DNA of 64,000 nucleotides from Eledone cirrhosa (lineage: Eukaryota), in assembly GCA_964016885.1 (NCBI GenBank), contig OZ024741.1:330460001-330524000 (forward strand), given 5' to 3'. Below, piece after piece: positions 628-58,848 of the stretch (the first letter of the stretch is position 1; each line of letters starts with the position of its first letter). Made by a program: the position numbers and the translations under genes. The notes under the pieces are model-generated. The model was not told the origin of the DNA and made no database searches. It saw only the letters and a program-made list of their open reading frames with translations.

Positions 628-3600
628 TCATCATCATCATCATCATCATTTTACGTCCGCTTTTCCCTGCTTGCAAGGGTGGGACGGGTCTTATTCAGCA
701 CAGCATCTCTCCACTCGTCACGGTCCCTTGTCATCTCCACCGTGAGCTTCAATGATCTGAGGTCTGTTCTCACCACCTCCGCCCATGTTTTTCGTGGTCT
801 ACCTCTACCACGTCTTCCTTCAACTGGCATTTCCTGGCACTTCTTCACCCATCGGTCATCCTCCATGCGCATCACATGTCCATACCACCTCAGTCTCCTC
901 TCCCGTACACTACATTCTATCCCTCTCAGACACAGTTTCTCTCTCAACACATTTATGCTGGGTCGTTCACGCACATTTACACTGCACATCCAACGGAGCA
1001 TGCTTGCCTCATTTCTCTCCAGCCGTCGCATATCTTCTGCGGTAGCTGCCCATGTCTCACTACCATGCAGCATCGCGCTCCTCACACAGGCATCATACAA
1101 CCGGCCTTTCGTACGCAGGGAGAAACCCTTCTTCGTCAACAGAGGAAGCAGCTCCCTAAACTTCTTCCAACCCGTCCTTATTCTAGATACTATGGCCTCG
1201 GAACACCCTCCTCCCATGCTAATCTGATCTCCTAGGTACCGGAAGCTATCCACCACTTCTATAGCGCCCTCTCGCATTTGAAAAATGTGTCTATCAGTGC
1301 GACTTCTACTGTCTAATTTCCCTGTACATCTACTGCATACATATTTCTCCCTACCTGTTAGTTTGCCTGCTATCCCGCTACATCTCTTGTGTACCCAGGA
1401 CCTACATTGTGTGCATTTTATAGAATTTATGCCAGTTCCTTTTCTGCATATCGAACATGGCCATTTCCCTGACGGAATCAGGGTTTTGTCCTCTTTTCTA
1501 CTCATCAACACTTTTGTCTTAGCTAGATTTACTCTCAGTCCTCTTGCTTCCAACTGCTGTTTCCATAGCCGGAATTTATTCTCTAGCTCCTCTACTGATT
1601 CTGCCATAAGAGCCAGATCGTCAGCATAGAGAAGTTCCCATCGACAGCCAGTCTTAAACTCCTCTGTTATGGCTTGGAGGACTATAATGAACAAGAGCGG
1701 GCTGAGGACCGAACCCTGATGTACTCCTACTTGTATCTGGAATTCCTCACTAAATTCCATTCCTACCCTGACTTTACTGAGAGTACCTCTGTACAAAGTT
1801 TGCACTGTCCTTACAAGCCATTCCTCAACACCCAGCTTCCTTAGGGACCACCAGATGACAGATCGGGGTACCCTATCAAAGGCCTTCTCTAGGTCAACAA
1901 AGGCTAAGTATAGTGGCTTATTCTTCTCTAAGAACCTCTCTTGCATTTGTCTCACCAAGAAGAGGGCATCTGTTGTACTCTTCCCAGGCACAAAACCAAA
2001 CTGCATCTCATCTAGTTTGACCCTTTCTCTAATTAGTTGTGCTAAAATCCTTTCTGCCACTTTCATAACCTGATCTATCAGTTTTATACCCCTATAATTG
2101 CTCCTCTCCAAAGCATCCCCTTTACCTTTGTAGCAATTTATGAGAATACTGCTGCACCAGTCTTTGGGTATGACACCACCATATATAGCCTGATTGATTA
2201 TGCGTGCAACCAGTTTAGTGCCTACGTCCCCTGATGCCTTCAGCATCTCAGCAACTATTCCCGATGGTCCGGCCGCCTTACCATTTTTCATTTCCCTAAT
2301 CGCCTCTTGGACCCTATATTCGTCAATCTCAATAGCTGGTCCCTCTGTCGGATCTACCAAGGGTAATTTCTCTCTCTCCCATTCGTTCTCCACATTCATC
2401 AGTCTCTCATAATGACATTTCCAGGCCTCCTTTTTCTGGTCATTCGTGACACTAAGTACACCGGCATCATCCCGGACACATTTATCACCAACAACATCCT
2501 GATTTGCATTGACACACTGCCTTGCAATGTGGAACACCGCACGCCTCTGATCTTCCCGTCGCAGAACATTGGCAAACCTCCTACTCTCTGCCTCCCTGCG
2601 TGCTAAGTACACCTGACGTCTAGCTTCTCTCTTAGTGGCTGTATATTCTTCCCTACTCCCACCCTTATTCCAAGCCTTCCATGCTAGTCTTTTGTCTCTA
2701 ATAGCCTTATCTACACTGCTGTTCCACCACCAGGTCACTCTCTGTCTGGTTGGAGCTCTGCTCCAGCCACAGGTTTCATCAGTAGCCTTCAGCAAGTTGT
2801 CACGTAAGAACTTCCAGTTATTATCTATGTCATACGTCTCTAAATCGTCTTCTTTTTCGTCATATACATCTTGAAGGGCTTTCCTAAATTTGAATTTTAG
2901 TGAAAGGTCTTTTAGCTTCCAGACCTTTCTTCTCCACACCTTCCTATATGTCTCATTCCATCTCTTGCTTACTGAGATATCACTAACAACTAACCTATGC
3001 TGTGGGGTACATTCTTCCCCAGGGTATGCCTTGGTATTAGACACTATCTGCCTGTCCCGCTGCCTAACTAGCAGGAAGTCAATCTGGCTTATGTGCTCAC
3101 CAGATTTGTAGGTTATTAGGTGATTGGCAGGTTTCTGGAAGTTTGTGTTGCAAATAGTCAATGTACTTGCATCACAAAATTCAAGAAGTCTCACTCCTTC
3201 TTCATTTCTTGAACCGTAACCGTGCCCACCATGTACCCCAGTGTAACCATCCTGGAGCTGTCCAACATGACCATTGAAGTCTCCTGCTAGCATAACGATG
3301 TCTCCGTCCTCTGTCATTGTGGTTGTTTGCAAAAGTTGCTCATAAAAGCAGTCTTTCTCATCTTTGCCCAGGCCTGCTTGGGGAGCATAGACCGAGATGA
3401 TTGTCAGTAGTCTCCTACCTACAACTAATCTAAGCTTAATTATTCGATTACTAACTCGAACTACCTCTATTGTCTTATTGATCCATTTCTCAGCCAGGAA
3501 AATGCCTACTCCCCCTAACCCATCATCCTTACCTACCCAGAATAGCTTATAGCTAAGACGCTTGCCTACGACTAGTCTCGCAGAGGCACCTCTCCATCTC

Positions 3601-3906
3601 ACCTCTTGCACGCAGCACATCCACCTGCCTTCTCTCCAGCATCTCCGCTATTTCAGCAGATCTACCTCTGAGAGTGCCAACATTAAGTGTTGCAACTCTG
3701 AGATGCGACGTCTTCATATTTTTCTATGGTGTTTTGTTGCTGTGCTGATAAGCTTTTTGGCATTGATACACTGGTTGGATGCCCTTCCTAACACCAGCGC
3801 CACTTTACAGCATGGACTGGGTGCTTTTATTTGTGCCACCAGCACTAGAGAGGATGTCTTACTAGACTCAAGGGCCCTCTCTACCCCTCCATTTTACAGC
3901 ATGGTC

Positions 3907-4203: not shown

Positions 4204-4277
<74 letters not shown>

Positions 4278-4577
4278 AATTGAAACAAAATGAAAACGAA
4301 ATTTCATTTCTCACTCTTAGTATGGCACTTACTTAAATGTAAGTATGCATGTATACGTACATACATATATGTATACAGACGTACAGTAGCATGCACACAT
4401 ATATATATATATACATATATACATACATATGCATACAGGTACACATACATATATGCACGTATCAGTTTAGCGGCGCTAACGTCGCTTTGTTCGTTTGTAA
4501 ACAAACTGAACAGCCTGAATTTATGCCATACGGTGTTAAGGCAACCACGTCACCCTTTTGTTCAACACTGACACAGG

Positions 4578-4622
4578 AACGATGTACTAGTTTCAAGCTT
4601 GTTAGCTATCATCAGCACCGTT
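4578..4622 (-). ncRNA. Type I hammerhead ribozyme, R1 copy 1
   Basis: Minus strand AACGGUG-CUGAUGA-U-AGCU(AACA)AGCU-U-GAAA-CUAG-UA-CAUCGUU. Palindromic stem III ACUAGU, GUA site. Confidence 0.9.
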
Positions 4623-4668
4623 TACCCATCTGCCAGATAGTTGAACGTTCGAAAGTATATACTTTCCT

Positions 4669-4704
4669 TATGAAAATTAACGGCTGAGCAGCCTAATTTG
4701 CATA
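4669..4704. promoter_or_regulatory. Inverted octamer pair (ATGAAAAT / ATTTGCAT), repeated in each R1 unit
   Basis: TATGAAAATTA-N14-TAATTTGCATA. The same motif with N13 occurs in family R2 at 14077-14111. Confidence 0.5.
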
Positions 4705-5043
4705 TTGAGTGAGTTAAATCGGTCAGGCATACCGAAAACGATAAATTGAAACAAAATGAAAACGAAATTTCATTTCTCACTCTTAGTATGGCACTTACTT
4801 AAATGTAAGTATGCATGTATACGTACATACATATATGTATACAGACGTACAGTAGCATGCACACATATATATATATATACATATATACATACATATGCAT
4901 ACAGGTACACATACATATATGCACGTATCAGTTTAGCGGCGCTAACGTCGCTTTGTTCGTTTGTAAACAAACTGAACAGCCTGAATTTATGCCATACGGT
5001 GTTAAGGCAACCACGTCACCCTTTTGTTCAACACTGACACAGG

Positions 5044-5088
5044 AACGATGTACTAGTTTCAAGCTTGTTAGCTATCATCAGCACCGTT
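5044..5088 (-). ncRNA. Type I hammerhead ribozyme, R1 copy 2
   Basis: Identical to copy 1, offset +466. Confidence 0.9.
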
Positions 5089-5509
5089 TACCCATCTGCC
5101 AGATAGTTGAACGTTCGAAAGTATATACTTTCCTTATGAAAATTAACGGCTGAGCAGCCTAATTTGCATATTGAGTGAGTTAAATCGGTCAGGCATACCG
5201 AAAACGATAAATTGAAACAAAATGAAAACGAAATTTCATTTCTCACTCTTAGTATGGCACTTACTTAAATGTAAGTATGCATGTATACGTACATACATAT
5301 ATGTATACAGACGTACAGTAGCATGCACACATATATATATATATACATATATACATACATATGCATACAGGTACACATACATATATGCACGTATCAGTTT
5401 AGCGGCGCTAACGTCGCTTTGTTCGTTTGTAAACAAACTGAACAGCCTGAATTTATGCCATACGGTGTTAAGGCAACCACGTCACCCTTTTGTTCAACAC
5501 TAACACAGG

Positions 5510-5554
5510 AACGATGTACTAGTTTCAAGCTTGTTAGCTATCATCAGCACCGTT
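5510..5554 (-). ncRNA. Type I hammerhead ribozyme, R1 copy 3
   Basis: Identical to copy 1, offset +932. Confidence 0.9.
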
Positions 5555-5975
5555 TACCCATCTGCCAGATAGTTGAACGTTCGAAAGTATATACTTTCCT
5601 TATGAAAATTAACGGCTGAGCAGCCTAATTTGCATATTGAGTGAGTTAAATCGGTCAGGCATACCGAAAACGATAAATTGAAACAAAATGAAAACGAAAT
5701 TTCATTTCTCACTCTTAGTATGGCACTTACTTAAATGTAAGTATGCATGTATACGTACATACATATATGTATACAGACGTACAGTAGCATGCACACATAT
5801 ATATATATATACATATATACATACATATGCATACAGGTACACATACATATATGCACGTATCAGTTTAGCGGCGCTAACGTCGCTTTGTTCGTTTGTAAAC
5901 AAACTGAACAGCCTGAATTTATGCCATACGGTGTTAAGGCAACCACGTCACCCTTTTGTTCAACACTGACACAGG

Positions 5976-6020
5976 AACGATGTACTAGTTTCAAGCTTGT
6001 TAGCTATCATCAGCACCGTT
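5976..6020 (-). ncRNA. Type I hammerhead ribozyme, R1 copy 4
   Basis: Identical to copy 1, offset +1398. Confidence 0.9.
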
Positions 6021-6091
6021 TACCCATCTGCCAGATAGTTGAACGTTCGAAAGTATATACTTTCCTTATGAAAATTAACGGCTGAGCAGCC

Positions 6092-8340
<2,249 letters not shown>

Positions 8341-8894: not shown

Positions 8895-8977
8895 CTTCTA
8901 TATTAAAACTGTTATACTCTGCTATGTATTGAGTACCTTACTTACTGTGGTTACCTCCGATTCAACCCGGAATAACG

Positions 8978-9041
<64 letters not shown>

Positions 9042-9109
9042 TGTATATATATGTATATATATGTATGTATATATATATATATGTATATATATGTATATAT
9101 ATATTTATA

Positions 9110-9194
<85 letters not shown>

Positions 9195-9291
9195 GTATAT
9201 ATATATGTATATATATATATATGTATATATATATGTATATATATATATATGTATATATATATGTATATATATATATATGTATATATATATG

Positions 9292-9322
<31 letters not shown>

Positions 9323-9325
9323 GTG

Positions 9326-9406
<81 letters not shown>

Positions 9407-9410
9407 GTAT

Positions 9411-11491
9411 GTGCTGAGAAGAAAGATGCATGGAAGAGTCATTATGATAGATTACTAAATGAGGAGAATGCATGGGAAGAAGAGACCCTACCCCACGTAG
9501 ACCCTATAGAGGGACCAGCAGTACAAGTCAGCGGCAGCGTAGTAAGTAAGGCAATCAGAGATATGAAGATAGGGAAGGCAACCGGTCCATCGGGTATAGC
9601 TGCCGAGATGCTGAAGGCATCTGGGTCTGTAGGTCACACTATAACCACACGTATCGTTAACCAGGTAATACTAGAGGGGGCCATACCAAAAGATTGGTGC
9701 AGTAGCATCATTGTCAACTGCTACAAAGGTAAAGGCGATGCACTAGATAGAGGAAACTATAGAGGTATAAAGTTGATGGACCAGGTCATGAAAGTAACAG
9801 AAAGAGTTATAGCACAGCTGATTAGGGACCGGGTGAATATAGACGAGATGCAATTTGGGTTTGTTCCAGGGAAAGGCACCACTGATGCGCTCTTCCTTGT
9901 GAGGCAATTACAGGAAAAGTACCTAGCTAAAAGTAAGCCACTCTACTTGGCATTTGTCGACCTTGAGAAAGCCTTTGACAGAGTTCCACGTGCAGTAATC
10001 TGGTGGGCTCTTAGAAAACTAGGAGTAGATGAATGGCTTGTGAAAGCGGTACAAGCCATGTATAGGGGAGCAGTCAGCAAAGTTAGGATTGGCAATGAGT
10101 ATAGCGAGGAATTTAGCGTACAGGTTGGGGTCCACCAGGGCTCTGTTCTTAGCCCTCTCCTGTTCATCATAGTCCTGCAGGCAATAACGGAGGAGTTTAA
10201 GACCGGATGCCCATGGGAACTCCTGTATGCTGATGACCTCGCACTCATAGCTGAATCTATGGTAGAACTAGAGAATAAATTCCAAACCTGGAAGCAGGGA
10301 CTAGAGAGAAAGGGCCTCAAAGTCAACATGACAAAGACTAAGGTCCTTATAAGTAGACGAGAAAACAGAACCCAGATCCCCTCAGGGAAATGGCCTTGCT
10401 CAGTATGTAGGAAAGGTGTAGGTAGGAACTCCATTCTCTGCCCCAAATGCAAACAATGGGTACACAAGAGATGTAGCGGGATCTCAGGAAGCTTAATTAA
10501 GAATGTAGGATTCACATGCAGCAGCTGTGCTGAAACAGCAAGCAAACAGCCACAGGAAACAAGTATCACCAATCTCTGGGAGGGCCCTGTAGAAACAGTA
10601 GACAGCTTCTGCTACCTAGGTGACCGAATTAGCAACGGAGGTGGGTGCTCAGAAAGTACAATAACTAGGGTAAGAACGGGATGGAAGAAGTTTAGGGAAC
10701 TACTACCACTGCTAGCTGCAAAAGGCTTCTCCCTCAGAATGAAAGGCAGACTGTATGATGCGTGTATCCGAACAGCGATGTTGCATGGTAGTGAGACCTG
10801 GGCGCTGAAGGTGGAAGACTTACGTAGATTAGAGAGAAACGAAGCCTGCATGCTCCGATGGATGTGTAACAGTAATATACGTGAACGACAAAGCATAAAT
10901 GAATTGAGAGAGAGACTGAGCATAAGAGGAATCAAATGCTGCGTGCAGGAGAGGCGGTTACGCTGGTATGGACATGTGATGCGTATGAAGGATGACAGCT
11001 GCATAAAAAGGTGCAGAGCACTAGAAGTTGATGGAAACCGCGGAGTGGGGAGACCCAAGATGACTTGGGATGAGGTGATAAAAGCCGACCTTACCCAACT
11101 ACACCTCTCAAAGTCAATGACACACGACCGTGACTTCTGGCGTCACGCAGTAATACAGGGTACCCGACCTCCCATGGGTACATGCTGAAGCATATAAACA
11201 ATATGCCCCCCCCCCCCCCCCACCGCAAGGTGGCCGTGGAGGTGCCACGGCAAAAAAGCACCCAGCCCACACTGTAAAGTGGACGTGTAGGCGCCACGAA
11301 AAAGCACCCAGCACTCACTGTAAATGAGGTTGGTGTTAGGAAGGGCATCCAGCTGTAGAAATCAAGCCAGATCAGTTCCTGTATGAGCAAGGCATGGTCA
11401 GCCGACCAGACACTGCCCACAACAGGACAACCCGTCTAACCCATGCTAGCGTGGAAGAACGGACGTAAAACGGTGATGATGATGATGATGA
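9411..11491 (+). mobile_element. 5'-truncated RTE LINE (family B) with open RT frame to 11188 and a 300-bp 3'UTR
   Basis: [16 protein letters not shown] and YADD motifs; (GAT)n tail. The ORF N-terminus in the track is microsatellite read-through. Confidence 0.95.
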
Positions 11492-13745: not shown

Positions 13746-14417
13746 TAAACAATTAAGTTAAAAATGTACATCTACATATGCATACTGAAATACTAGTGTG
13801 TATATGAATACACACACGTATACATATGTAGGTGTACCAAGTCTTTCACTGGTCGCTTTGCAGTGAGCGGCCAGCTATTCTGTATGTAAACACACAGACA
13901 AACCGGTTTTTAGAGTCATACTGGTTTTTCGGGGGAACACCTTCCCCCTATTCTCCAGAAAGCCAGACAAGGAATATTGAACTAGTTTCGTTGTTGTTAC
14001 AACTCATCAGCAATATTTACCTATCTACCGGCCTTTCTGGAGAATTGTAAAAGCACATATCGTTATATGCTTTTTCTATGAAAATTAGTAGTGGGCAGAC
14101 TAATTTGCATAGAGTGTGAGTACGCACCGGTTCAGCGGAGACGATAAAAACAAATAACGAAACGAAATTAAATTTTGTTTCGTTTGTAACTCACTTTTGT
14201 ATGACTGACGCTTAAACAATTAAGTTAAAAATGTACATCTACATATGCATACTGAAATACTAGTGTGTATATGAATACACACACGTATACATATGTAGGT
14301 GTACCAAGTCTTTCACTGGTCGCTTTGCAGTGAGCGGCCAGCTATTCTGTATGTAAACACACAGACAAACCGGTTTTTAGAGTCATAATTAGAAATTTAA
14401 TTTCGTTTCGTTATTTG

Positions 14418-14424
<7 letters not shown>
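13746..14424 (-). mobile_element. 467-bp unit (1.4 tandem copies) with hammerhead: retrozyme-like family R2, with short inverted 5' piece
   Basis: The unit restarts at 14213 and runs to 14387. Positions 14393-14424 are an inverted copy of about 14143-14174. Confidence 0.85.
13973..14017 (-). ncRNA. Type I hammerhead ribozyme, R2
   Basis: AAUAUUG-CUGAUGA-GUUGU(AACA)ACAAC-GAAA-CUAG-UU-CAAUAUU. The outer stem TTCTCCAGAAAG/CTTTCTGGAGAA extends helix I. Confidence 0.9.
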
Positions 14425-16055: not shown

Positions 16056-19000
16056 AGTCAGAGGCCCATACTATCGCTTAACTGGTTGCTTTTCGATATG
16101 ATGGATGGACTACGGAATTCTGGAGAGTTGAAGAGAGAAAAATGTGGACGCTCAGCGACAATGCCAAAGATAAAGCCAAATTCACCTCGTGGACGAGAAT
16201 GCAAGCACTCCTCCTTGTTTCGGCCCAGGATGGCTAACATAACCCCCCCCCCCCCCCGCGCCCCACCGCTCCCACCCTCCAAACGCAATCCAAAACTTCA
16301 GAGTTGGCACCATGAATGTAGGCACCTTAAAGGGTCGCTCTAACGAGGTTGTAGAAATGCTTGAACGTAAGGAGGTCGATGTTTGTTGTATTCAAGAGAC
16401 CAGGTCGAGGGGAGGGTCGGCTAGATTCATCGTGGGTAAAGAACGATGCTATAAGCTTTTCTGGGTGGGAAATGACAATGGGTTGGGTGGGGTAGGAATC
16501 ATGGTAGCAGAAAAGTGGGCAGATAAGATAATAGACGTAAATAGAGTGAACGACAGAATAATTAAAATAAGACTTGTCCTCAATAAAACTACGGTGACAG
16601 TAATATCTGCGTACGCACCCCAATCCGGACTGCCCCGCGCTATAAAAGACAGATTCTACGAGACACTGATGCTCGCTACCTCCCAAATAACCGACAGTGA
16701 CTATATAGTTATTGCAGGCGACCTAAATGGTCACGTTGGACAACATTGTGACGGCTATGACGGAATCCATGGAGGCTATGGGTTCGGTACTAGAAATGAG
16801 GAAGGCTCCAGAATCCTGGAATTCTGCGACGCAAATAACTTAACTATCTGTAACACTAACTTCAAAAAACGAGACAATCACTTGATCACCTATAGATCGG
16901 GGGAACACACAAGCCAGGTAGATTATATCCTTACCAGAAGACGGGACAGAGTGTCTGTTGTTAACACTAAATCCCACCCCCATGAAGAATTCACCTCCCA
17001 ACATAGACTGATAATTAGCGACCTCATAGTCAGGACGAGACGTACTAGACAGCGGAAGAGGACTATCCTCAGGAGAAAAATATGGAAGCTAAAGGACCCC
17101 ATAGCCAGAAATAAATTTCAAAGCATATTACTTGACGCTTTCGACAGTAAGGAAGAGCAATTAGAGTCGTATAATATAGAGGAACAGTGGGAATTCCTGA
17201 GAGCAAACCTGCTGACGGCGGCAGACGAAGTCTGTGGCTGGAGCAGGCCTGTAGGTAGGAGGAGAGTAACATGGTGGTGGAACAGTAAGGTGGAGGAGTC
17301 AATTAAGGCCAAAAAGCAGGCTTGGAAAGTATGGCGGGATGGGGGAAGTAGAGAAGACTATCAAGTGGCCAGGAGGGAAGCTAGGAGACAAGTGTACTTC
17401 GCAAGAAGGGAAGCAGAGGAAAGAAAGTTCAAGCATGTTCTACAACGTGAGGACCAAAAACGTGAGGTGTTCAGGATTGCCAGGCAATGTGTCAAGGAAA
17501 ACCGTGATATTGTCGGGGAGAAGTGTGTACTTAACGATGATGGCATACTTGCCTTCACCGACGCTGATAAGAAGGTAGCTTGGAAGTGTCACTACGAAAG
17601 GCTTCTAAATGAGGAGAACGAGAACAAATGGGAGAAAGACAGTCTCCCCCAGATCGATCCAATAGAGGGACCAGCAGTGTTAGTTGAAGGTAGTATAATA
17701 AGTAAGGCAATCAAAGATATGAAGACGGGTAAGGCGGCTGGGCCTTCGGAAATAGTTGCTGAGATGCTGAAGGCATCTGGTTCGGTGGGACACACCATGG
17801 TCACCCGGATAGTTAACCAAGTCGTACAGAATGGGGTTGTTCCGAAGGAATGGCGTAGCAGCATCATCGTTAACTGCTATAAGGGAAAAGGAGATGCCCT
17901 AGATAGGAGTAACTATAGAGGCATTAAATTAATCGACCAGGTCATGAAGGTCACGGAAAAAGTAATAGCGCAACTAATCAGAGAGAGAATTGATCTAGAT
18001 GAAATGCAGTTCGGGTTTGTGTCAGGCAAAAGTACCACAGACGCTCTTTTCATTGTACGACAACTACAAGAGAAGTACCTAGCTAAAAGTAAACCCCTAT
18101 ACTTAGCTTTCGTCGACTTGGAGAAAGCCTTCGACAGAGTCCCCCGTTCCATTATCTGGTGGTCTCTTAGAAAACTAGGTGTTGACGAATGGCTTGTGAG
18201 AGCTATACAAGCCATGTATAAAGAAACAGTCAGTAAGGTTAGAATTAACAACGAATATAGTGAAGAGTTTAGCGTAAAAGTTGGTGTCCATCAGGGCTCT
18301 GTTCTTAGCCCCCTACTATTTATTATTGCCCTTCAGGCTATAACAGAGGAGTTCAAGACCGGCTGCCCATGGGAACTCCTATACGCAGATGATCTAACGC
18401 TCATAGCTGAATCAATGGCCGAACTAGAGAAGAAATTCCAAACGTGGAAGCACGGCCTAGAATCAAAAGGCCTTAAAATTAACCTGGCTAAGACTAAAGT
18501 TCTAGTTTGTAGGAAAGAAAATAAGGCGGCGGTCCCATCGGGGAAATGGCCATGCTCAGTGTGTAGGAAAGGCGTAGGTAGAAACTCCATTTTATGTCCC
18601 AAATGCAAAGTATGGGTGCATAAAAGATGTAGTGGGATCACAGGTAAGCTAACTAAGAACATAGATTTTACATGTGGCCGGTGCTCTGGTGCAATAAGTA
18701 GCAGCAAGTGCCCACAAAATACTAGCTCCTTCAACTGCGCAAAGGGTTCTATAGAAATAGTGGCCAGCTTCCGTTATCTGGGTGACAAAATCAGCAGTGG
18801 GGGAGGGTGCTCTGAAAGTACAGTAGCTAGAGTCAGAACTGGATGGAAAAAGTTCAGAGAGCTTATACCACTATTAGCGCTAGAGGGTTCTCCCTAAAAT
18901 GAAAGGCAGGTTATACGATGCCTGCATATGAACAGCAATGCTGCATGGCAGTGAGACCTGGGCATTGTGGTGCAGAGGATATACGCAGACTAGAGAGGAA

Positions 19001-26641: not shown

Positions 26642-27260
26642 ATGTTCCCAGCACATAAATATAGTAACATTTTTAATAGAAATACCATTAAAATTTCTTA
26701 CTCTACGACTCCTAACCTTGCACATAACATCACAGCTTCAAATTTAATTAAATTACCGAGCTGTAGGAACACGTGCAACCCTGTAGCTAGTACTAACTGT
26801 AATCGTAGGAATCGGGTTGACTGCCCCCTATCCGGGAAATGCCTTTCTAGTAACATTGTCTACAAATGTAAGGTTGAAACACCCATGTCCCGTATTGCCT
26901 ACATAGGGTTAACCGCCAATAGATTCAAGCAGCGTCTGTCTTTACATGCATACCCATTCTTTTCTTAACCCTTTAAGAAGGAATATGACGTCACTTTCAG
27001 CTTATATCTGGAGTCTAAAAGACAACCACACCCAATATAAGTTACACTGGGAGATCCTAGCTAAGGCTAGATCGTATAACGGAAATAAAAGACCATGTGA
27101 CCTCTGCGCCGCTGTGGCCCTGGAAATACTCTACGCCAAAGACCACATCTTAAACAAAAAATCTGAGGCAATTTTGGCTTGTAAACATAAATTGCACAAA
27201 CTTTCCCGTATTACAGCCCCACATTATACCCTAACGGATAGTACGAACAATACGTCTTGA
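26642..27260 (+). pseudogene. Naiad-type PLE GIY-YIG endonuclease fragment, frameshifted
   Basis: IFNRNTIKISYSTTPN, CPLSGKC, IVYKC..YIG..FKQR, CDLC..LNKK..CKH. Confidence 0.85.
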
Positions 27261-31259: not shown

Positions 31260-32470
31260 TTTTTCTTTTTAGTCATCTGGCTTCAACACTGGCTTAAGAT
31301 ATTTGAAAGTTGCAAAGCTTTTGTGCATGCAATTCGGGCAGTGTTCAGAGAGTTTGTTCAGTATCGGACCCTTGGCAAATAGTATTTTGTAGCTCTCTGA
31401 AATACAAAGGTCACGGCACTTGTATCCTCCCTTATATGAGCGCGCTTTCTGGAATATTTTCCATTTGAGCGTGAAAGGAGTGGAGTTCCTCTTGAGGTCA
31501 CAGACATAGGAGGCGAGTGTTGTCTGATTGGATTTGTCCGGTCTTCTGTAAGAGTGAGTATAGGCATATCACCGGGTCTTAAAATTGTTGGAAGTCATTC
31601 GATATAAGTTTTTTTGTTGTTGTCATCAGTGCCTGAGATGACATCACATTTATATACAACGTCATTTGTTAGGCATTTGATTTCAAGTGGGCAGGCTTCC
31701 TTATTTTGGCAGTTGTACAAAGCTCCCGCCCGGGGATTGGTTTCGGAAGTAGTAGGCTTATTTAATTTTGTAGTGTTGAGATTGGCTATATTCCTAGCTA
31801 GATTAGGTGTAGTGGAGTAGGAGAGTCTTACTGTATTCCTATTAAAGATAGTGTAGTACCTATGTTGTGTGGGGAAGTGTATTTTCAGCAATTTGAAGAA
31901 AGTACTAGCTATAGGTGTAGAAACCTCTCTATTGTATCAACTAATCTGCCTATGCCCATTTCTCCTAGGTAGTCTTGGGGTGGTTTCTAGATAAGTAATC
32001 TTTTCTTTAAATCCTCTGCGGGCAAGGGTGTCGCTGTAGTAAGAGGCAGAGGCGCTGAAGATATCTTCATTGGCCAAAAGACCGGAAATTCTGAGTGAAA
32101 TGCTTTTAATTAAGTTATCTGTGATATTTTGGGGTTGGTTCGAATTAATATTTATATATCTGAGGGACTCGTTAGGTTTGTGGTACGGGTAATAGAGGGA
32201 AGTATCTAAGTCGAGAGTGACATCTAAAAAGTTGGTTCTAGTCATATTTGATTCTATGGTTATTCTAAATCCTAGATTATGGAAGAACGAGCTTAAGTTT
32301 CCCTGAAACACATCAGGGTTTCTGAGGTTTACTTTGTGCAAGGCGAAAAGGGCCATCATCTTGGTATAATCCTCCAGTTAGGCCCGTGAAGAGGTTCTTC
32401 AGGTGGTATAAGATGTACAGGCCCACAAGGTCGCTAACTTCATCCGAGTCAGTTGCCCGCATGCTGACGT
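31260..32470 (-). pseudogene. Degenerate Naiad-type PLE (RT C-terminal part plus GIY-YIG)
   Basis: [51 protein letters not shown]. Confidence 0.85.
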
Positions 32471-32478
32471 CATATATA

Positions 32479-33269: not shown

Positions 33270-34473
33270 TAACAAAGTTCTTTCGTTGCACATCTGCAAC
33301 ATCGTCAGTGGTGCTATTATGTTTCCCCCTGTTGTATTGTATGTCTACGCCATCTTTATTTAATCTGTTTATTTATTTATTTATTTATTTTTGTCTTCTT
33401 CTCTGCGCATGCGTTTGTGTGTGTGTATAGTGTTTGATGTGTGTTCGCGTTTGGGTGACTGTGTTTTGGTTATTGTATTCTATCTTAGTTTATTAGTGTG
33501 TGTTTATGTATTTGTTGTTATTGTGCTTGTGTATATATTTATTTATTTATATTTCTCTTAGGTCAGTATTGTTTGTTTGGGTGTTGTTGTTATTCCATTC
33601 ATTTTTTCTGTTTAGCTTTGGCCTTCTAAGTTCTATTTCACTGGCCTCTCTGATTTGCTTATCTGCTGGGTTATTTCTATGTTTAGATATTATTTTAATT
33701 TCTATGTTGTCTATGTTACCGTCATGTTGTTGTCTGGCATGTTCGTATAGTACTGAACCGTTTTTTCGTCCTTTTAGTTCCCCCCAGTGTTGGTCTATCC
33801 TTTCACCTATGCTACGAGCTGTCTCGCCTATGTATGTTGTTGTCATGTTTCTGCAAGTACCATCTGTACATCTTATGCTATAGACTACGTTTCTAGTTTT
33901 ACAGTTTATCCGGGGATTTACTTTACATATAATACATTTCCTATTGGTACAGTGGGTTTTCTTAAAAGGGTAGGTTTTGCTGATCAGGGATTTTATGGTG
34001 GTTCCTGGCTTTTCTACTACCTTAAACTTTAGGTGGGTCTTTCTCGGCCTTTCTACACTGGTTAGCTAATTTCCCTCCAGGGGTAGCGTCCACGAACATG
34101 ACACTCGGGTATCTCTGGTTGTCGAAGCATGAGGTGGCTTTCCCTATCTTATGTTTAGTCCTATCTAAGCTATTCCATGATTTGCTCCTGTATAATGGGC
34201 AAATTCCTTTCATGTCCAGTTCTATGAGGGTCTTATACTTCTCCGTGGCTCCTTCATATACTCTGATTCTGTCTCTTTGGTTGTAGACAGAGAACTGCAT
34301 GCGATTGATGAAGTGTTGGATGTGTCTTTCCATTTCTGTTGGGTTGCACATGCGGGACACGTTCTTCATCACTCGTACCAAGTCTGCGATCAGAATATTA
34401 AACTTAGCACTACTGGACATTGCTGAGTTTTTGAGTATCAGGTATTTGGAGGCCATGAGTTTAGCGTAGTCAT
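33270..34473 (-). mobile_element. 5'-truncated PLE (GIY-YIG, Nematis/Neptune-like) with a degenerate hammerhead in the 3' repeat
   Basis: VVYSIRC..YIGETARSIGER..H..QIREA..LNRKNEW. CUGACGA-U-GUUGCA(GAUG)UGCAAC-GAAA at 33281-33308 on -. Confidence 0.75.
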
Positions 34474-34498
34474 CATATATGTATATATATATATACAG

Positions 34499-34562
<64 letters not shown>

Positions 34563-34705
34563 GTATATCTGTTAGACACGCAGTGACTAACAACAGAATG
34601 TTTTAAGTCTGCGTGTCTGACATATGCGTAGCTTGTGAATAGAATATTCAAGGGGTGTTGCTGGCTGCGGTGATGATCGCTGCCAAACATGTTTTGTAAA
34701 ATATC

Positions 34706-34928
34706 GTCTTATTGGCTAATTTCGTTGTCTTATTGGCTAATCAACCAACGAGAGTAATTGTTGCTCAAAAGCATCCGCCATTTTGTTTGCACGTTTATTT
34801 ATCGTTTCGCTTTCGAATCTTCCTCCTGTATTTCGTCGTTTATCATCAAAATATTTTTCTCATTTTGGTAAGTTATATTGTTAATTTATATATGATTTTT
34901 TAAATTTATATTAACTATTTTTTTTCAG
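34706..34928 (+). promoter_or_regulatory. Possible Pol II promoter, first exon and short intron
   Basis: Duplicated CTTATTGGCTAAT (reverse CCAAT at 34711 and 34732), YY1-like CCGCCATTTT at 34775, GTAAGT at 34868 to T-tract-CAG at 34928. Confidence 0.4.
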
Positions 34929-35823: not shown

Positions 35824-36202
35824 ATAAAATATTAAACAAATAATGAATAAACAATTCCTTATATTAAACAAAAAAAGTTCATTATTTAACAATCGTTTCT
35901 AGGATATATATGTGTTAGAATTGGTATGCATATTCAACAGATCTATGTACAAAATTATACAAAATTATACAAATTATCAAGATTAAATATACATACCAAA
36001 CACATATAAATATTTGTTATATGTGTTTGGTATGTATATTTAATCTTGATAATTTGTATAATTTTGTATAATTTTGTACATAGATCTGTTGAATATGCAT
36101 ACCAATTCTAACACATATATATCCTAGAAACGATTGTTAAATAATGAACTTTTTTTGTTTAATATAAGGAATTGTTTATTCATTATTTGTTTAATATTTT
36201 AT
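35824..36202. repeat. Perfect palindrome, 186-bp arms with a 7-nt loop
   Basis: 35824-36009 is the reverse complement of 36017-36202. Confidence 0.92.
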
Positions 36203-36417: not shown

Positions 36418-38000
36418 CCTAACGCTAGCTCTAGAAACCACCCCCCTCATAAAACTAACGTTATAGTAAGCCCGCGAACGGGCGACAGCGCATTAACACA
36501 CATAAGAGCGATCACTTAGATGGAACCACCCGTAGCAAAAGTACAAGGACACGTAATCGCCACCGTAACGTCCTATGGTTCCCCCCCCCCTACTCTCGAA
36601 GTGTGGCCTCCAACATACCCCGGATATTCTTCGAAGCCTTAGAGAAGAACTTCCCACCCAACCATAGGTATAGAAAAATTCTTAATAGGAACAATATAAA
36701 AATATCCTTCTCTACTACTCCTAACCTAGCAGACATCATAGGAACAATGAACCACAGTAAGATCACCAAGACACAGCACCTCGACGCAGACGCACCTACA
36801 CCTGACAATAACTGTATCGGCCTTAACAACTCCTTGACAGCATCCAATAGTGTTGGCAACGGCATCCGCAGACGCAACCAGAATGACCGCGAAGTGACTG
36901 GGGAGCATGCAAAACATGGCGTGCGGAATAACAATCGCACCATCCCGCGTGCTGTGGGTTGTAATTGTGCTAACGACAGCTGCGGTAGCACAGCTAACAA
37001 CGTAGGCAGCAACAATGATAGCCTTATCGTGGGAAATAGACGGAACAGCGACAGAAATTGCAACTGCCGCGACAGAGGACGGTGCCCCCTTAGAGGATAC
37101 TGCTTGACCGATAGGGTTATATATAGATGCACTATTACTAGCCACAATAGCGTTAAACATTATATAGGGGCCACCTCCGGCCCGTTCAAAATTAGGTTTC
37201 GAACACATCTCCACTCTTTCACAAATAGAAAACTAAGGCACTCCACCTCGCTCGCGGACTACATCACATCACTAAAGGACTTAAACATTAGCTTCTCCAC
37301 GCACTGGGAGATTGTCGACAGGGCTGCACCGTACAACTTCAAGAGGAAATGCGATCTTTGCCTCATGGAGCTCTACCACATCATAACTGCACCCCACGAG
37401 CTCATCAACAGCAGAGCTGAAACAGCGATAAGTTGTACACATCGCTTAAAAATATCCTTCTTTAGATGGGTTAAGAATGGAGAGTGAAATAACACACTGG
37501 ATCTCCCTGCAACAAGTCTTAACACCCCGGCGGGCAGGCGCAGCAAAACAACACCCAGAAAACGATCCCTGCATACCAAAAATTATCCGGGAAAGACTGC
37601 CCTAACACCGGCCAAAGTTACCTCCCTTGACCTGCTGCAAAATCAAAACAAGATATTTTTGCGAGCGATGAATCTTGATGTCGATTTAACCCCCAAATCT
37701 CTTTCCAAACTATATAAGGAACACTTGTGACTGTTTATGCCCTTGAGAAGCCCAACTGGGCGAAACGTACGTAGGTGATATTTTCAATAAACATGTTTTA
37801 ACGGCCTATTCTCCGATTTTTCACTTTCCCACGTGCTTACGCTCTGCTAACTCTCTAGCCCACTAAATATTAACACTTCGAATATTTAATACTGCCGGCA
37901 CTAGTATCGAGCACCTTTGGCATACGCTACTTGGCAAATAACTATATGTATCACCTATCCCTCCATTTTTTCTCTCTTTCTCGATACGTAAATACTATAT
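36418..38000 (+). mobile_element. 5'-truncated Naiad-type PLE copy (GIY-YIG plus 3' repeat)
   Basis: Highly similar to 41432-43283, with an internal deletion. CNCRDRGRCPLRGYC, YIG and CDLC motifs. Confidence 0.92.
37736..37780 (+). ncRNA. Minimal hammerhead, U3-A8 core variant, in the Naiad 3' repeat
   Basis: CC-TTGAGAA-GCCC(AACT)GGGC-GAAA-CGTACG-TA-GG. Stem I is weak; AATAAA follows. Confidence 0.7.
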
Positions 38001-38102: not shown

Positions 38103-38393
38103 GTATATATATGTATATATATATATATATATATTTATTAAAATAACAGATTAAAGTTTAAGCAAAGAATCGCTGCTTTCACCCTTAACGTGATCTTCTG
38201 AAACTATATGTATATATATATATGTATATATGTATATGTATATATTAGAATTGGAGCTCTGAAATAGCAATATATATATGGATGTATATATAATGTATTT
38301 TGCAATACACTTTATGCTTAATTAAAAGCATTTTGAAGACCGTAAGCTATTGTTTTAAAGTAGTGACAAATTCACTCACTTTGATCTCAGCAA

Positions 38394-38464
38394 ACAGGGG
38401 AGATAAGCCGACAAGACTTGTTTCGCTTTGGTTGAAGCTTATCAAGGCCAACTACCCCACCTGT
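38394..38464 (-). ncRNA. Type I hammerhead, U3-A8 variant
   Basis: Reverse complement of 38698-38768. Confidence 0.8.
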
Positions 38465-38697
38465 CTACTGAGATCATTGATGTTATATTCTTATAGAAAT
38501 CTAGTAAATAATCAGGAGCTGATTATGCAGAGCGGTTGTTGGTCAGGCAGAAATTAAAAATTATCCATATATATATTGCTATTTCAGAGCTCCAATTTTA
38601 ATTTTTAATTTCTGCCTGACCAACAACCGCTCTGCATAATCAGCTCCTGATTATTTACCAGATTTCTATAAGAATATAACATCAATGATCTCAGTAG

Positions 38698-38768
38698 ACA
38701 GGTGGGGTAGTTGGCCTTGATAAGCTTCAACCAAAGCGAAACAAGTCTTGTCGGCTTATCTCCCCTGT
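38698..38768 (+). ncRNA. Type I hammerhead, U3-A8 variant, with extended bulged helix I
   Basis: ACAGGTGGGGTAGTTGGCC-TTGATAA-GCTT(CAACCA)AAGC-GAAA-CAAGTCTTG-TC-GGCTTATCTCCCCTGT. Confidence 0.8.
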
Positions 38769-38899
38769 TTGCTGAGATCAAAGTGAGTGAATTTGTCACT
38801 ACTTTAAAACAATAGCTTACGGTCTTCAAAATGCTTTTAATTAAGCATAAAGTGTATTGCAAAATACATTATATATACATATGTATATATATACATATG

Positions 38900-39888: not shown

Positions 39889-42800
39889 CTACTTGGCAAA
39901 TAACTATATGTATCACCTATCCCCCCTTTTTTTCTCTTTCTCGATACGTAAATACTATATTACCGTGCTCCTTTTGTAGAGCATCTCACCTTATTTGCCA
40001 TTATGTTGGAGAACCAGCCGTTACCCATGTCTCTCAAGTGTATCCCCTTACCCAGCAGAAAAACCTACCTTAAACTGCTTATAGATGGTACTAATTCTGT
40101 TTATACGGAGAGTCAGATGGAAGGCCTACCACCTGGATAAGAACACCCGTAACCTTCCTGAACCCAAAGAGAAGTATGGCTTCAAAACATACCGAAACCC
40201 ACCTCACAACACCTTACTGGACTCCTTTGAAGAGGACCTGCTGAAAATGATCAAAAACGTTAAGCTCAGAAAGAAACACCAATGCAGCAATCCATTCTTA
40301 ACGTCCCTTGATACACTAATAACTAAGATCAAGAATGACCCGCACCTCTTCGTCACCTCCGACAAAACCAAAAAGCTGTACAAGATGGACGCGAGTGAGT
40401 ATAAAAAATTCAATCTATAAGGAACTACACAAAGACTACAAAAAGACACCCTCTAGTACCCTAAATGACATAAATAGAGTAGGGAAGGATATAGTCACCA
40501 GCTTAGAAATAGAAAAGTACACTAACCCATACGTCCCTCTGACGCCTAAATTCTCTTTTAAGGATCACAAATATGACTTTAATGAAAGCCCCTCTATTAG
40601 ACTAATATGCCCCTCTACATCAGATATAGGTAAGATTAGTAAAGTGATCCTCGACAGAGTACTACTCGAGCTTAATAGAAAGGCTAAAGTCTGCCTCTGG
40701 GGCAACACCGACCAGGTCATAAATTGGTTCACCGAGTTGCCAGATAAAGCCACCCTGAAATTCATCTAGTTTGATATAGATAGCTACTACGCCTCTATCT
40801 CCCCCATACTCTTAAATAAGGCACTTATCTTAGCTAGATCTAACACTAGCCTCACTAAAAAAGAAATAGACATAATTCTAGCGGCACGTAGAACCATTAT
40901 CCAGTTCGAAGACTTCCACTGGACCAGAACCAACCGTCCTGATAACTTCGATGTCACGATGGGGTCTAGTGACTCAGCGCAAGCAACTGACCTGGTCGGG
41001 ATATACCTCCTACATAAGCTTAGGGAAGAAATACCGGCCCTACAAGGAGGTGTATATAGGGACGACGCCCTGTTTACCGTTAGGAACCATAGCCCCCGTA
41101 GGATAGAGAACCTTAACAAACATATACACAGTTTCTTTAAGTCATACGGCCTATCCGTAACTATGGACCTCAACCACAGGGTTGTCAACTTCCTGGACGT
41201 GACCCTGGAGTTGAGTACGGGCTTATACAAGCCATACCATAAGCCTGGAGAGTGCCTCTCTTATATTAATTATGCCTCCAACCACCCTAAGCAGACTCTC
41301 AACTCCATAGTCTATAGTATCTCACATAGAATCTCGAGGCTATCCGCCAATGAGGATATCTTCAACCAAGCGGCTGATTACTACAATAGGGCCCTGATAA
41401 GCGCCGGCTTTAACCGAGGAATTTCCTACATCCCTAACGCTAGCTCTAGAAACCACCCCCCTCATAAAACTAACGTTATAGTAAGCCATACCTATAACCG
41501 ATCACGCGGCGACCTCGTTGAAGTCGGATATAATAGAATAGATAACCGCACCAAAGATCACGCCCCCGGCGACGGTGAACACTGTGGATTACTCAAACTA
41601 TTCCCCTATTACAAAACCAACAAAGGCGACGGCCTACTACCAACGCCTTCCAACCAACATCTTCGTGTACATAAACATGGAAGAAGTAGAAAGAGTGCAC
41701 CCGAGCATAAAGTGAAAGGGGCACCGAACGGGCGACTGCGCATTAACACACATAAGAGCGATCACTTAGATGGAACCACCCGTAGCAAAAGTACAAGGAC
41801 ACGTAATCGCCACCGTAACGTCCTATGGTTCCACCCCCTCTACTCTCGGAGTGAGGCCTCCAACATACCCCGGATGTTCTTCGAAGCCTTAGAGAAGAAC
41901 TTCCCGCCCAACCATAGGTATAGAAAAATTCTTAATAGGAACAATATAAAAATATCCTTCTCTACTACTCCTAACCTAGCAGACATCATAGGAACAACGA
42001 ACCACAGTAAGATCACCAAGACACAGCACCTCGACACAGACGCACCTACACCTGACAATAACTATATCGGCCTTAACAACTCCCTGGCAGCATCCAATAG
42101 TGTTGGCAACGGCATCCGCAGACGCAACCAGAATGACCGCGAAATGACTGGGGAACATGCAGAACATGACGTGCGGAATAACAATCACACCACCCCGCGT
42201 GCTGTTGGTTGTAATTGTGCTAACGACAGCTGTGGTAGCGTAGGTAACAACGTAGGCAGCAACAATGATAGCCTTACCGTGGGAAATAGACGGAACCATG
42301 ACAGAAATTGCAACTGCCGCGACAGAGGACGCTGCCCCCTTAGAGGATACTGCTTGACTGATAGGGTTATATATAGATGCACTATTACTAGCCACAATAG
42401 CGTTAAACATTATATAGGGGCCGCCTCCGGCCCGTTCAAAATTAGGTTTCGAACACATATCCACTCTTTCACAAATAGAAAACTAAGGCACTCCACTTCG
42501 CTCGCGGACTACATCACATCACTAAAGGACTTAAACATCAGCTTCTCCACGCACTGGGAGATTGTCGGCAGGGCTGCACCGTACAACTTCAAGAGGAAAT
42601 GCGATCTTTGCCTCATGGAGCTCTACCACATCATAACTGCACCCCACGAGCTCATCAACAGCAGAGCTGAAACAGCGATAAGTTGTACACATCGCTTAAA
42701 AATATCCTTCTTCAGATGGGTTAAGGATGAAGAGTGAAATAGTACACTGGATCTCCCTGCAACAAGTCTTAACACCCCGGAGGGCAGGCGCTGCAAAATA

Positions 42801-43462: not shown

Positions 43463-45817
43463 AAGTAGATGAGGCAGCTAAGGCCAAGAGACAGGCATGG
43501 AAAGAATGGAAGAACGGGGGAAGCAGGGTACATTACATAGAGACCAAGAGGGAAGCTAAGCGTCAAGTATACTTACCTAGGAGGGAAGCAGAGGATAGAA
43601 AATTCAAGCATGTTTTGCAACGTGAGGACCAGAAACAGGAGGTGTTCAAGATTGCGAGGCAGTGTGTAAGAGAGAATTGTCATGTCATTAGAGAGAAGTG
43701 TATCCGGAATGATAAAGGTGAGCTTGCCCTCACAAGTGCTGAGAAGAAAGATGCATGGAAGAGCCATTATGATAGATTACTAAATGAGGAGAATGCATAG
43801 GAAGAAGAGACCCTACCCCAAGTAGACCCTATAGAGGGGTCAGCAGTACAAGTCAGCAGCAGCATAGTAAGTAAGGCAATCAAAGGTATGAAGATGGGGA
43901 AGGCAACCGGTCCATCGGGTATAGCTGCCGAGATGCTGAAGGCATCTGGGTCTGTAGGTCACACTATAACCACACGTATTGTTAACCAGGTAATACTAGA
44001 AGGTGTCATACCAAAAGATTGGTGCAGTAGCATCATTGTCAACTGCTACAAAGGTAAAGGTGATGCACTAGATAGAGGAAACTATAGAAGTATAAAGCTG
44101 ATGGACCAGGTCATGAAAGTAACAGAAAGAGTTATAGCACAGTTGATTAGGGATCGGGTGAAACTAGATGAGATGCAATTTGGGTTTGTACCAGGAAGAG
44201 GCACCACTGATGCCCTCTTCCTTGTGAGGCAGTTACAGGAAAAGTACCTAGCTAAAAGTAAGCCAATCTACCAGGCATTCGTCGATCTCGAGAAAGCCTT
44301 TGAAAGAGTTCCACGTGCTATAATCTGGTGGGCTCTTAGAAAACTAGGAGTAGATGAATGGCTTGTGAAAGCGGTACAAGCCATGTATAGGGGAGCAGTC
44401 AGCAAAGTTAGGATTAGCAATGAGTATAGCGAGGAATTTAGCGTACAGGTTGGTGTCCACCAGGGCTCTATTCTTAGCCCTCTCCTGTTCATCATAGTCG
44501 TGCAGGCAATAACGGAGGAGTTTAAGACTGGATGCCCATGGGAACTCCTGTATGCAGATGACCTCGCACTTATAGCTGAATCTATGGTAGAACTAGAGAA
44601 GAAATTCCAAACTTGGAAGCAGGGACTAGAAAGAAAGGGTTTCAAAGTCAACATGACAAAGACTAAGGTCCTTGTAAGTAGACGAGAAAACAGAACCCAG
44701 ATCTCCCCAGGGAAATAGCCTTGCTCAGTATGTAGGAAAGGTGTAGGTAGGAACTCCATTCTCTGCCCCAAAGGCAAACAATGGGTACACAAGAGATGTA
44801 GCGGGATCTCAGGAAGCTTAATTAAGAATGTAGGCTTCACATGTAGCAGCTGTGCTGGGACAGCAAGCAGCAAACAGCCACAGGAAACAAGTACCACCAA
44901 TCTCTGGGAGGGCTCTGTAGAAACAGTAGACAGCTTCTGCTACCTAGGTGACCGAATTAGCAGCGGAGGTGGGTGTTCAGAAAGTACAATAACTAGGGTA
45001 AGAACGGGATGGAAGAAGTTCAGGGAACTACTGCTACTGCTAGCTGCAAAAGGATTCTCCCTCAAAATGAAAGGCAGACTGCATGATGCATGTATCCGAA
45101 CAGTAATGTTACATGGTAGTGAGACCTGGGCGCTGAAGGTGGAAGACTTACGCAGATTAGAAAGAAACGAAGCCTGCATGCTGCGATGGATGTGTAATAG
45201 TAATATACGCGAACGGCAAAGCATAAATGAATTGAGAGAGAGACTGAGCATAAGAGGAATCAAATTCTGTGTGCATCAGTGGCGGTTGCGTTGGTATGGA
45301 CATGTGATGCGTATGAAGGATGACAGCTGCATAAAAAGGTTCAGAGCACTAGAAGTCAATGGAAACCGCGGAGTGGGGAGACCCAAGAAGACCTGGGATG
45401 AGGTGATAAAAGCCGACCTTACCCAATTTCACCTCTCAAAGGCAATGACACATGACCGTGACCTCTGGCTTCATGCAGTAATACAGAGTACCTGACCTCC
45501 CATGGGTACAAGCTGAAGCATATAGACAATATGCCCCCACACCCTCCCACTGCAAAGTGGTAGTGGAGGTGCAACGGCAAAAAAGCACCCAGCCCACACT
45601 GTAAAGTGGACGTGTAGGCACCACGGAAAAAAAGCACCCAGCACTCACTGTAAATGAAGTTGGTGTTAGGAAGGGCATCCAGCTGTAGAAATCAAGTCAA
45701 AATCAGTTCCTGTATGAGCAAGGCATGGTCAGCCGACCAGGCACTGCCCACAACAGGACAACCCGTCTAACCCATGCTAGCATGGAAGAACGGACGTAAA
45801 ACGGTGATGATGATGAT
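43463..45817 (+). mobile_element. 5'-truncated RTE family-B copy with nonsense mutations
   Basis: Colinear with 9411-11491; TGG>TAG stops at about 43798 and 44716; (GAT)n tail. Confidence 0.95.
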
Positions 45818-58300: not shown

Positions 58301-58848
58301 TTGCTGTATCACCCTGTCTAGAATGTTTTTGCTTAGTTTACCCAGGTCCGATTTTGATGGTGCAATCAATCTGACTGGCAGGTCATTTTCAAAATTACTT
58401 TTGTGATCTTTCATATTGATCTTCGGTTTCCTGGGCACGAAAGGTTGTGTTCTGTTCTCAATTTCCAACTCATGCATTATACAAGATGCTTCAACATTCA
58501 TTTTCTCAAGCTCGGCCTTATCTGCTACCTTGTACTTTTTCCTCAGTTCTTTCAGTATGAGGCCATTATACATGTCTTTTTGCACTCGATAGAGGTTGTT
58601 GGTCTTGTCAGATTTCACCAAGATCTTCTCAGTTTTCTCTAAGCTCTCAATATTATCCTTAATGCCTTTCAGATATTCCTGGCCTTTGAAGTTTCTCTTG
58701 AATTTGACTCCTTGTATGATAGAAATTATATCGTTTTCAAAGTCAAATAAAAGTTTGTTGGCGGGTGGATTTCTTTTAGATTTGAAAACTTTGTCTAAGT
58801 CCGAGACATTTTCATTTAGTTCATTTATTTATAAGACTGTTTATATTG

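Follow-up and report, generated by a model that had tools for sequence, protein, structure and literature searches.

R1 and R2, two elements in the 64,000-nucleotide stretch of Eledone cirrhosa DNA that we analysed (the window), are by their sequence related non-LTR retrozymes on the minus strand, additions to a class already known. On the same strand, ahead of the ribozyme, each carries a module of fixed internal spacing that is a fair candidate for an internal promoter. The module can be read as a compact Pol II promoter that would serve the ribozyme-sense strand, start transcription ~47-59 nt before the cut and overlie an RNA hairpin, a candidate reading to which we give somewhat less than an even chance. 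The original prediction had given the units a promoter of their own, of snRNA type; the snRNA type did not survive the analysis, and what stands is the idea that the best-conserved block outside the ribozyme may be an internal promoter, on the minus strand, made of other parts and with fixed internal spacing.

The R1 array (4275-6093, minus strand) consists of 3.9 copies of a 466-bp unit, ~99-100% identical to one another, and R2 (13746-14387, minus strand) of 1.4 copies of a 467-bp unit; both sit within (TA)n, in a window of animal DNA with abundant (TA)n, RTE-type LINEs and Penelope-like fragments. Unit length is nearly constant between the two (466/467) despite numerous internal indels. Type I hammerheads were found at 4567-4629 in R1 (minus strand, cut after 4585, recurring every 466 bp, with a palindromic stem III and a U.U at the base of stem II) and at 13957-14028 in R2 (minus strand, cut after 13980); the core, stems I-III and the helix I loop are all there, indicating that both are canonical type I ribozymes. 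The Rfam HH9 model scored R1 at 18.5 bits (E 0.16), below the gathering score, and R2 at 38.6 bits (E 3.6e-8), short of the gathering score of 52. Searching the window at Rfam gathering thresholds gave 0 matches, and at relaxed thresholds the HH9 hammerhead was the only meaningful family, the microRNA matches being rejected as artefacts of (TA/TG)-hairpins. The hammerhead pattern matched twice in bacterial and archaeal genomes, both times within bacterial ORFs and with no model match, and we attribute these matches to chance.

The units have the features by which non-LTR retrozymes are recognised: one type I hammerhead per unit, tandem non-coding units a few hundred bp long, a GC content under 50% (30-37% in kb bins across R1) and strong self-pairing, with MFE z scores of -6.6 for R1 and -9.5 for R2 (40 shuffles each; the plus strand of R2 gave a similar value, -9.4). 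No ORF of at least 120 aa lies within R1, those that overlap it being (TA)n artefacts at the array edges. Flanking sequence is repeated on both sides over ~26 bp for R1 and ~80 bp or more for R2, but inside microsatellite; a target-site duplication of more than 4 bp, when present, is the criterion for non-LTR retrozymes given in the available text of PMC7229834. The R2 flanks near 14388-14424 repeat (ATC)n/(ATAC)n microsatellite over at least ~80 bp on either side, a possible long target duplication. The metazoan non-LTR retrozymes in the accessible part of PMC7229834 (Cervera and de la Pena 2020) resemble R1 and R2 in being tandem few-hundred-bp repeats of under 50% GC that contain a type I hammerhead and are predicted to form a highly self-paired circle, and Penelope-like elements with hammerheads co-occur with them as they do in this window. 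The U.U in the R1 hammerhead is found there in axolotl HHR_Amex2, and the units of R1 and R2 (466/467 nt) are slightly longer than the 150-450 bp quoted. According to that part of the same paper, circular RNAs of metazoan retrozymes are abundant in every tissue tested.

Alignment of the R1 and R2 units gave 243 identical positions out of 452 (54%), against 44 +/- 3% for shuffled pairs, and by sequence the two are homologues. Because homology at ~54% makes shared runs of 8-10 nt expected, short motifs alone carry little weight. When we simulated chance sharing at 45-65% identity, a shared run of at least 8 nt arose in 35-99.7% of simulations and one of at least 10 nt in 8-90%; two runs of at least 11 nt within 20 nt arose in 0-8% overall (0.4% at 55% identity, 8% at 65%). 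Among the shared motifs, the octamer block only is clearly above chance on this sequence comparison. R1 and R2 also have 13- and 11-mers in common at non-collinear places. One such 13-mer, with a 7/8 octamer match, lies at ~4890-4902 in R1 and 13773-13785 in R2, non-homologous spots in AT-rich hairpins, and is probably compositional.

The inverted octamer pair on which the original prediction was built is real: exact matches lie at 4669-4704, where 14 nt separate the two octamers, and at 14077-14111, where 13 nt do, and it recurs exactly at 5135 and 5601, giving 4 matches in the window against 0 in 100 shuffles, with a solitary left arm at 6067. There were 0 matches to the pair in bacterial and archaeal genomes, and the literature matches listed for the 11-mer included no useful POU reference. 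The downstream motifs named with it are also present in both elements, namely GTGAGT (4709/14116), ACGATAAA (4738/14141) and AAACGAAATT (4760/14160); the claimed CTCACT.TT.GTATG box holds in the 4 copies of R1 and is one base shorter in R2, at 14190-14203. The spacings among these motifs are unequal between R1 and R2 (10/9, 11/25, 24/21 and 31/27).

We folded R1 and R2 as minus-strand circles, and the predicted structures have ~15 helices in the same order, matching one to one. In nine of these helices, with registers anchored by hand in the two sequences, 33 of 55 pairs are unchanged, 19 are changed on both sides, 2 are changed on one side and 1 is broken; the compensated pairs indicate that the fold is under selection. 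The octamers form a hairpin on the minus strand. In R1 (4669-4704) the 5' arm, 4694-4704, bears ATGCAAAT (4696-4703) and pairs with the 3' arm, 4669-4679, with a C.U mismatch; in R2 (14075-14113) the octamer is at 14103-14110. The remaining motifs likewise fall on elements of the predicted minus-strand fold. GTGAGT corresponds to a helix arm (4707-4713) that pairs with 4776-4782, the CTCAC half of the proposed PSE-like box (4776-4793); after a short linker, the GTATG half (4786-4793) pairs with 4990-4997 in a different helix, in which 2/8 pairs are compensated. ACGATAAA, which reads UUUAUCGU on the minus strand (4738-4745), is single-stranded in both predicted folds, and AAACGAAATT lies in a hairpin (4754-4775) that is mostly loop in R1 and a stem arm in R2. 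The corresponding R2 arms span 14116-14206 on the minus strand (14116-14121 with 14189-14194, and 14199-14206 with 13914-13921) and include the downstream motifs. Elsewhere in the fold, a UUUA loop closed by G-C is conserved at 4961-4968 (R1) and 13885-13892 (R2), the rest of that hairpin stem being different.

R1 and R2 agree at 11 of 11 positions of the octamer stem, its mismatch among them, compared with 33/55 in the other helices (Fisher p about 0.007). The GTGAG helix is likewise unchanged (5/5 pairs), and 6/12 pairs of the hammerhead stems next to the module are changed on both sides. An exact octamer arises by chance in ~2% of shuffles per unit. The second octamer is the hairpin partner of the first, but the sequence identity of the octamer arm exceeds what pairing accounts for. 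Either the sequence is read by something, or the identity is a modest fluke of a two-sequence comparison.

R3 (38595-38875, plus strand) is a third element with a hammerhead, and its layout resembles that of R1 and R2: a long stem encloses the ribozyme, and a hairpin follows. Its type I hammerhead (38703-38773, plus strand, cut after 38752; Rfam HH9 24.6 bits, E 4.2e-4) has an intact fold in the Rfam alignment, with the core TTGATAA in place of CTGATGA. U3-A8 is a natural working variant of the hammerhead. The available part of PMC6155905 does not confirm this variant. An inverted, near-identical copy of R3 lies at ~38285-38566 on the minus strand, and 38250-38875 as a whole forms an inverted duplication, near-perfect with 1 difference over 279 aligned bases, plus an extra small fold-back.

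The R3 module (38631-38680, plus strand) comprises a hairpin, 38631-38662, beginning TCTGCA, and a block AAG.ATATA at 38670, 37 bp past TGCA and mostly unpaired. The same two blocks are found on the minus strand of the other elements, where AAG.ATATA lies at 4656-4664 in R1, 38 bp past TGCA and spread over the stem and loop of a small hairpin, and at 14064-14072 in R2, 37 bp past TGCA and in a fully paired hairpin arm. The TGCA-to-AAG.ATATA distance is thereby 38, 37 and 37 bp in R1, R2 and R3, across hairpins that differ, and from module start to cut there are 118, 130 and 120 nt. With a two-block profile built from only the positions common to R1 and R2, and holding no ribozyme information, the R3 site ranked between 1st and 74th of 122,165 positions in 96 settings and 1st in 44; this test was devised after R3 was known, and half of the 96 settings are duplicates. 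A profile of the R1/R2 region gave weak matches (E 0.2) at 38416-38746, which belong to the inverted pair of R3 copies. Nhmmer missed the R3 module at E up to 30, a covariance model put it last of 22 matches (E 8.7), and ungapped R2/R3 identity is 26/48 (P about 0.01). R3 keeps the hairpin through a different sequence, and has neither the exact octamer nor the inverted second octamer. By sequence, a 48-bp module, consisting of a TGCA-led block followed by AAG.ATATA 37-38 bp on, is probably common to R3 and R1/R2, and the case for homology of R3 outside the ribozyme is weak. If R3 is homologous, then the hairpin and its unpaired C persist, the exact octamer and the inverted second octamer do not, and the TATA-like block keeps its distance as pairing varies.

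Since the second block occurs in three pairing states (stem and loop in R1, fully paired in R2, mostly unpaired in R3), pairing does not explain its conservation, and rigid internal spacing together with free pairing suits reading of the module as DNA. The spacing from module to ribozyme is variable (38 in R1 vs 51 in R2). The TATA-like block agrees at 6/8 positions, by hand count, with the TATA consensus, a score that shuffles reach ~22 times per R2 unit, and a CA dinucleotide at +30, +31 and +27 from the block, where a start site would be expected, is too common to weigh. Octamer-to-TATA spacing near 40 bp has precedent; the literature that we searched yielded no paper in support of it.

As a Pol II promoter, the module would place a POU-type site at ~-70, as the exact octamer in R1 and R2 and as a variant in R3, and a TATA-like box at ~-30, the two a fixed 37-38 bp apart. 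Transcription would start near 4631 (R1), 14038 (R2) and 38700 (R3), just 5' of the first arm of the hammerhead, and each copy would be transcribed through its own hammerhead into the next copy; because read-through of its own and the next copy supplies two successive hammerheads, this would be enough for monomer release. At the RNA level, the POU site would be sequestered in the hairpin, which would impose the inverted near-copy. Multimers would self-cleave to 466/467-nt monomers and form circles, as expected from known retrozyme biology, and an autonomous RT, probably Penelope-like, would copy the circles into (TA)n. We infer a Penelope-like partner from the 5' inversions, the (TA)n targets and the Penelope fragments with hammerheads in the window. 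A broader proposal, that a dual-coded 48-bp module common to a group of invertebrate retrozyme families combines POU and TATA-like DNA sites at fixed helical spacing with a hairpin in the RNA circle and starts Pol II just 5' of the hammerhead, is tentative and in our judgement rather unlikely.

An RNA-only signal, the chief alternative, is quite possible, if on balance doubtful. On this account the hairpin with its unpaired C and AAG.AUAUA would be bound on the RNA circle by a protein (the partner RT, a ligase or a stabiliser), the octamer would be incidental, and the copies would owe their transcription to read-through or to a promoter located elsewhere. For R1, R2 and R3 alike, folding predicts the hairpin at P 0.94-0.98 and leaves the same C after UG unpaired, which suits an RNA signal, and R3 retains the stem with a different sequence and without the octamer. 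Rigid spacing is also shown by the hammerhead, which acts at the RNA level, the entire unit is structurally constrained (z -6.6 and -9.5), and the conserved UUUAUCGU at two insertion junctions hints at RNA-level roles. However, an RNA-only signal gives a poor account of the fixed 37-38 bp across differing hairpin shapes and of the three pairing states of the second block, and it leaves to chance an exact octamer that only ~2% of shuffles per unit contain.

That the module has no special function, being a slowly diverged or recently exchanged AT-rich hairpin stretch whose resemblance to R3 is due to chance, is improbable. The comparison involves two or three sequences, the p values are modest and post hoc (0.004-0.01), and paired 11-nt runs appeared in 8% of simulations at 65% local identity; against this, R3 ranks at worst 74th of 122,165, and the heavy compensation of the adjoining hammerhead stems (6/12 pairs on both sides) argues against recent exchange there.

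We also considered an snRNA layout on the minus strand, in which the octamer would act as the distal enhancer of a PSE lying within the next copy, 160-179 bp downstream (R1 4519-4536, R2 13907-13924), so that one copy drives the next. This layout has the correct strand, its sites are the best minus-strand PSE matches per unit (9/12 against the vertebrate consensus), and the octamer would lie near -230 to -250, where 67 of 76 rows in the available human snRNA list are at -178 or beyond (hand count). Nevertheless, 9/12 was attained in 64% and 70% of shuffles, the two PSE sites are 2 nt out of register relative to the shared GTATG, a helix arm, and the distal element of sea urchin U6 is an E-box, with no octamer; we regard this layout as very improbable. 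The PSE consensus used throughout is the vertebrate one in the accessible part of PMC5493778, and PSEs diverge among invertebrates, so it is a coarse yardstick here; the mollusc PSE data in the literature searched included nothing usable. Measured against this consensus, the best PSE sites on any strand score 8-9/12, attained in 64-100% of shuffles, the minus-strand best of 9/12 is at chance level, and 8/12 sites occur ~7 times per unit in shuffles.

Other expected components of an snRNA promoter were similarly lacking above chance. The best STAF/ZNF143 site near the octamer scored 12-13/18, seen in 75-100% of shuffles, and the 3' box had no exact consensus match on any strand of the R1 or R2 unit. 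A self-cleaving RNA might dispense with a 3' box. The 3' arm of the octamer hairpin may resemble the insect PSEA, a candidate that we rejected, its spacing to the TATA-like block being unsuitable. Pol III was considered through its type 2 boxes: the A box had no perfect match on any strand of the R1/R2 units, and the sole 7/7 B box lies on the plus strand of R1 and has no conserved counterpart in R2. Each unit contains 4 T-runs of 4-5, and these runs, without perfect A and B boxes, argue against Pol III.

The plus-strand model of the original prediction, in which the octamer pair and the PSE-like box form an snRNA-type promoter, is scarcely credible: the hammerhead is on the minus strand, so a plus-strand octamer-to-PSE layout would transcribe RNA antisense to the ribozyme, the box matches the vertebrate PSE at a chance-level 8/12 (computed for R2, counted by hand for R1) with a 1-nt internal indel between R1 and R2 and halves that are arms of two separate helices, and the second octamer is better explained as the hairpin partner of the first, not retained in R3. 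With 73/80 nt between octamer and box, the octamer would come to lie near -140 to -155, a range that holds 0 of the 76 rows in the available human list (hand count). In favour of that model, the exact octamer is present in R1 and R2, the box opens with TCAC in both, octamers function in either orientation, and the divergence of invertebrate PSEs makes the vertebrate consensus a weak test.

The insertion junctions bear on a different part of the cycle. Two junctions, the R1 insertion end (4275) and the outer end of the inverted R2 piece (14424), share one base of the single-stranded UUUAUCGU, at its TAT|C, and this is one of the TAT sites predicted to be unpaired (6/28 in R1, 3/15 in R2). These junctions, two only, suggest that UUUAUCGU is a preferred priming site for (TA)n targets and not a promoter element. 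At the 5' end of R2, 14393-14424 (plus strand) is an inverted R2 piece, the reverse complement of 14144-14175, and the 5' inversion at 14388-14424 resembles twin priming or the inverted ends of Penelope type. Long fold-back palindromes also lie beside (TA)n at 35824-36201 (378 bp, 98.7% self-complementary) and ~540-625, and such inversions recur in the window.

Penelope-like RT/GIY-YIG fragments are found at 52687-53789, 56734-58828, 40181-42734, 36459-37484, 31293-32471, 26645-27197 and 33550-34708; at 52800, the fragment carries a C-terminal GIY-YIG domain and is accompanied by an inverted 5' copy, and the best named matches of the Penelope-like protein are bivalve proteins at 57-60% identity. 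Four further hammerhead-like motifs, at 35563 (+), 58857 (+), 55341 (-) and 51929 (-), are of probable Penelope type; those at 35563, 58857 and 55341 have a palindromic stem III, and those at 58857 and 55341 are near-copies of one another. We found no similarity between R1/R2 and the Penelope-type hammerhead regions at 35563 and 51929. RTE-type LINE ORFs at 654-3647, 8933-11185, 16243-18894 and 43801-45492 carry a PHD finger directly after the RT domain (best protein match 53% identical), and the first three of these LINEs have (TGA)n tails running into (TA)n. A SINE-like tail partnership with the RTE LINEs was rejected, their (TGA)n tails being absent from R1 and R2.

Two other hammerhead repeats offer points of comparison. 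Newt satellite 2, reportedly described by Coats, Zhang and Epstein in 1994, is said to have a promoter with a distal octamer and a PSE, and its ovary transcripts are said to begin ~47 nt upstream of the cut. It is a hammerhead tandem repeat like R1 and R2, and that start compares with the 47-59 nt predicted here; in R1 and R2, by contrast, no PSE exceeds chance against the vertebrate consensus and the octamer would lie at ~-70, closer than any of the 76 human snRNA octamers in the part of the list available (nearest -90). According to the accessible text of PMC2220036, two hammerhead repeats have internal promoters, that of the newt being of snRNA-type Pol II and that of the schistosome Pol III. 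The schistosome SM-alpha repeat is comparable to R1 and R2 as an invertebrate repeat with a type I hammerhead and an internal promoter, the latter a candidate one in R1 and R2 (available parts of PMC2220036 and PMC6155905), but its promoter is of Pol III, whereas R1 and R2 have no perfect A/B boxes and several T-runs.

Vertebrate snRNA promoters (DSE plus PSE), in the available parts of PMC5493778, PMC3958870, PMC3499247 and PMC9758055, contain the exact ATTTGCAT octamer found in R1 and R2; unlike them, R1 and R2 are without a PSE, STAF site or 3' box above chance and have another geometry. In the available part of the human octamer list, ATGAAAAT occurs once, at a site marked unoccupied. Penelope-like pseudo-LTRs, in the accessible text of bioRxiv 10.1101/2021.04.23.441226, resemble R1 and R2 in their hammerheads, inverted 5'-truncated copies, (TA)n targeting and internal promoters near the pLTR (a candidate in R1/R2), and R1 and R2 differ from them in encoding no protein, forming head-to-tail repeats and having full canonical hammerheads. 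The word promoter appears twice in the available text of PMC7229834, both times for T7, and that text describes no internal promoter; our search found no promoter study of a mollusc retrozyme in the literature covered, most subscription journals lying outside it.

The module is a testable candidate for how retrozyme repeats become transcribed, with exact start sites and mutation effects predicted. If it is a promoter of the kind proposed, it would add a third type to the promoters of animal hammerhead repeats, besides the newt snRNA-type and schistosome Pol III promoters. Circular-RNA output would then be tied to POU factors, every new insertion would bring a mobile POU-type promoter, and POU-responsive promoters would spread via (TA)n sites. 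If it is instead an RNA signal, the module would be a candidate recognition feature for the partner reverse transcriptase.
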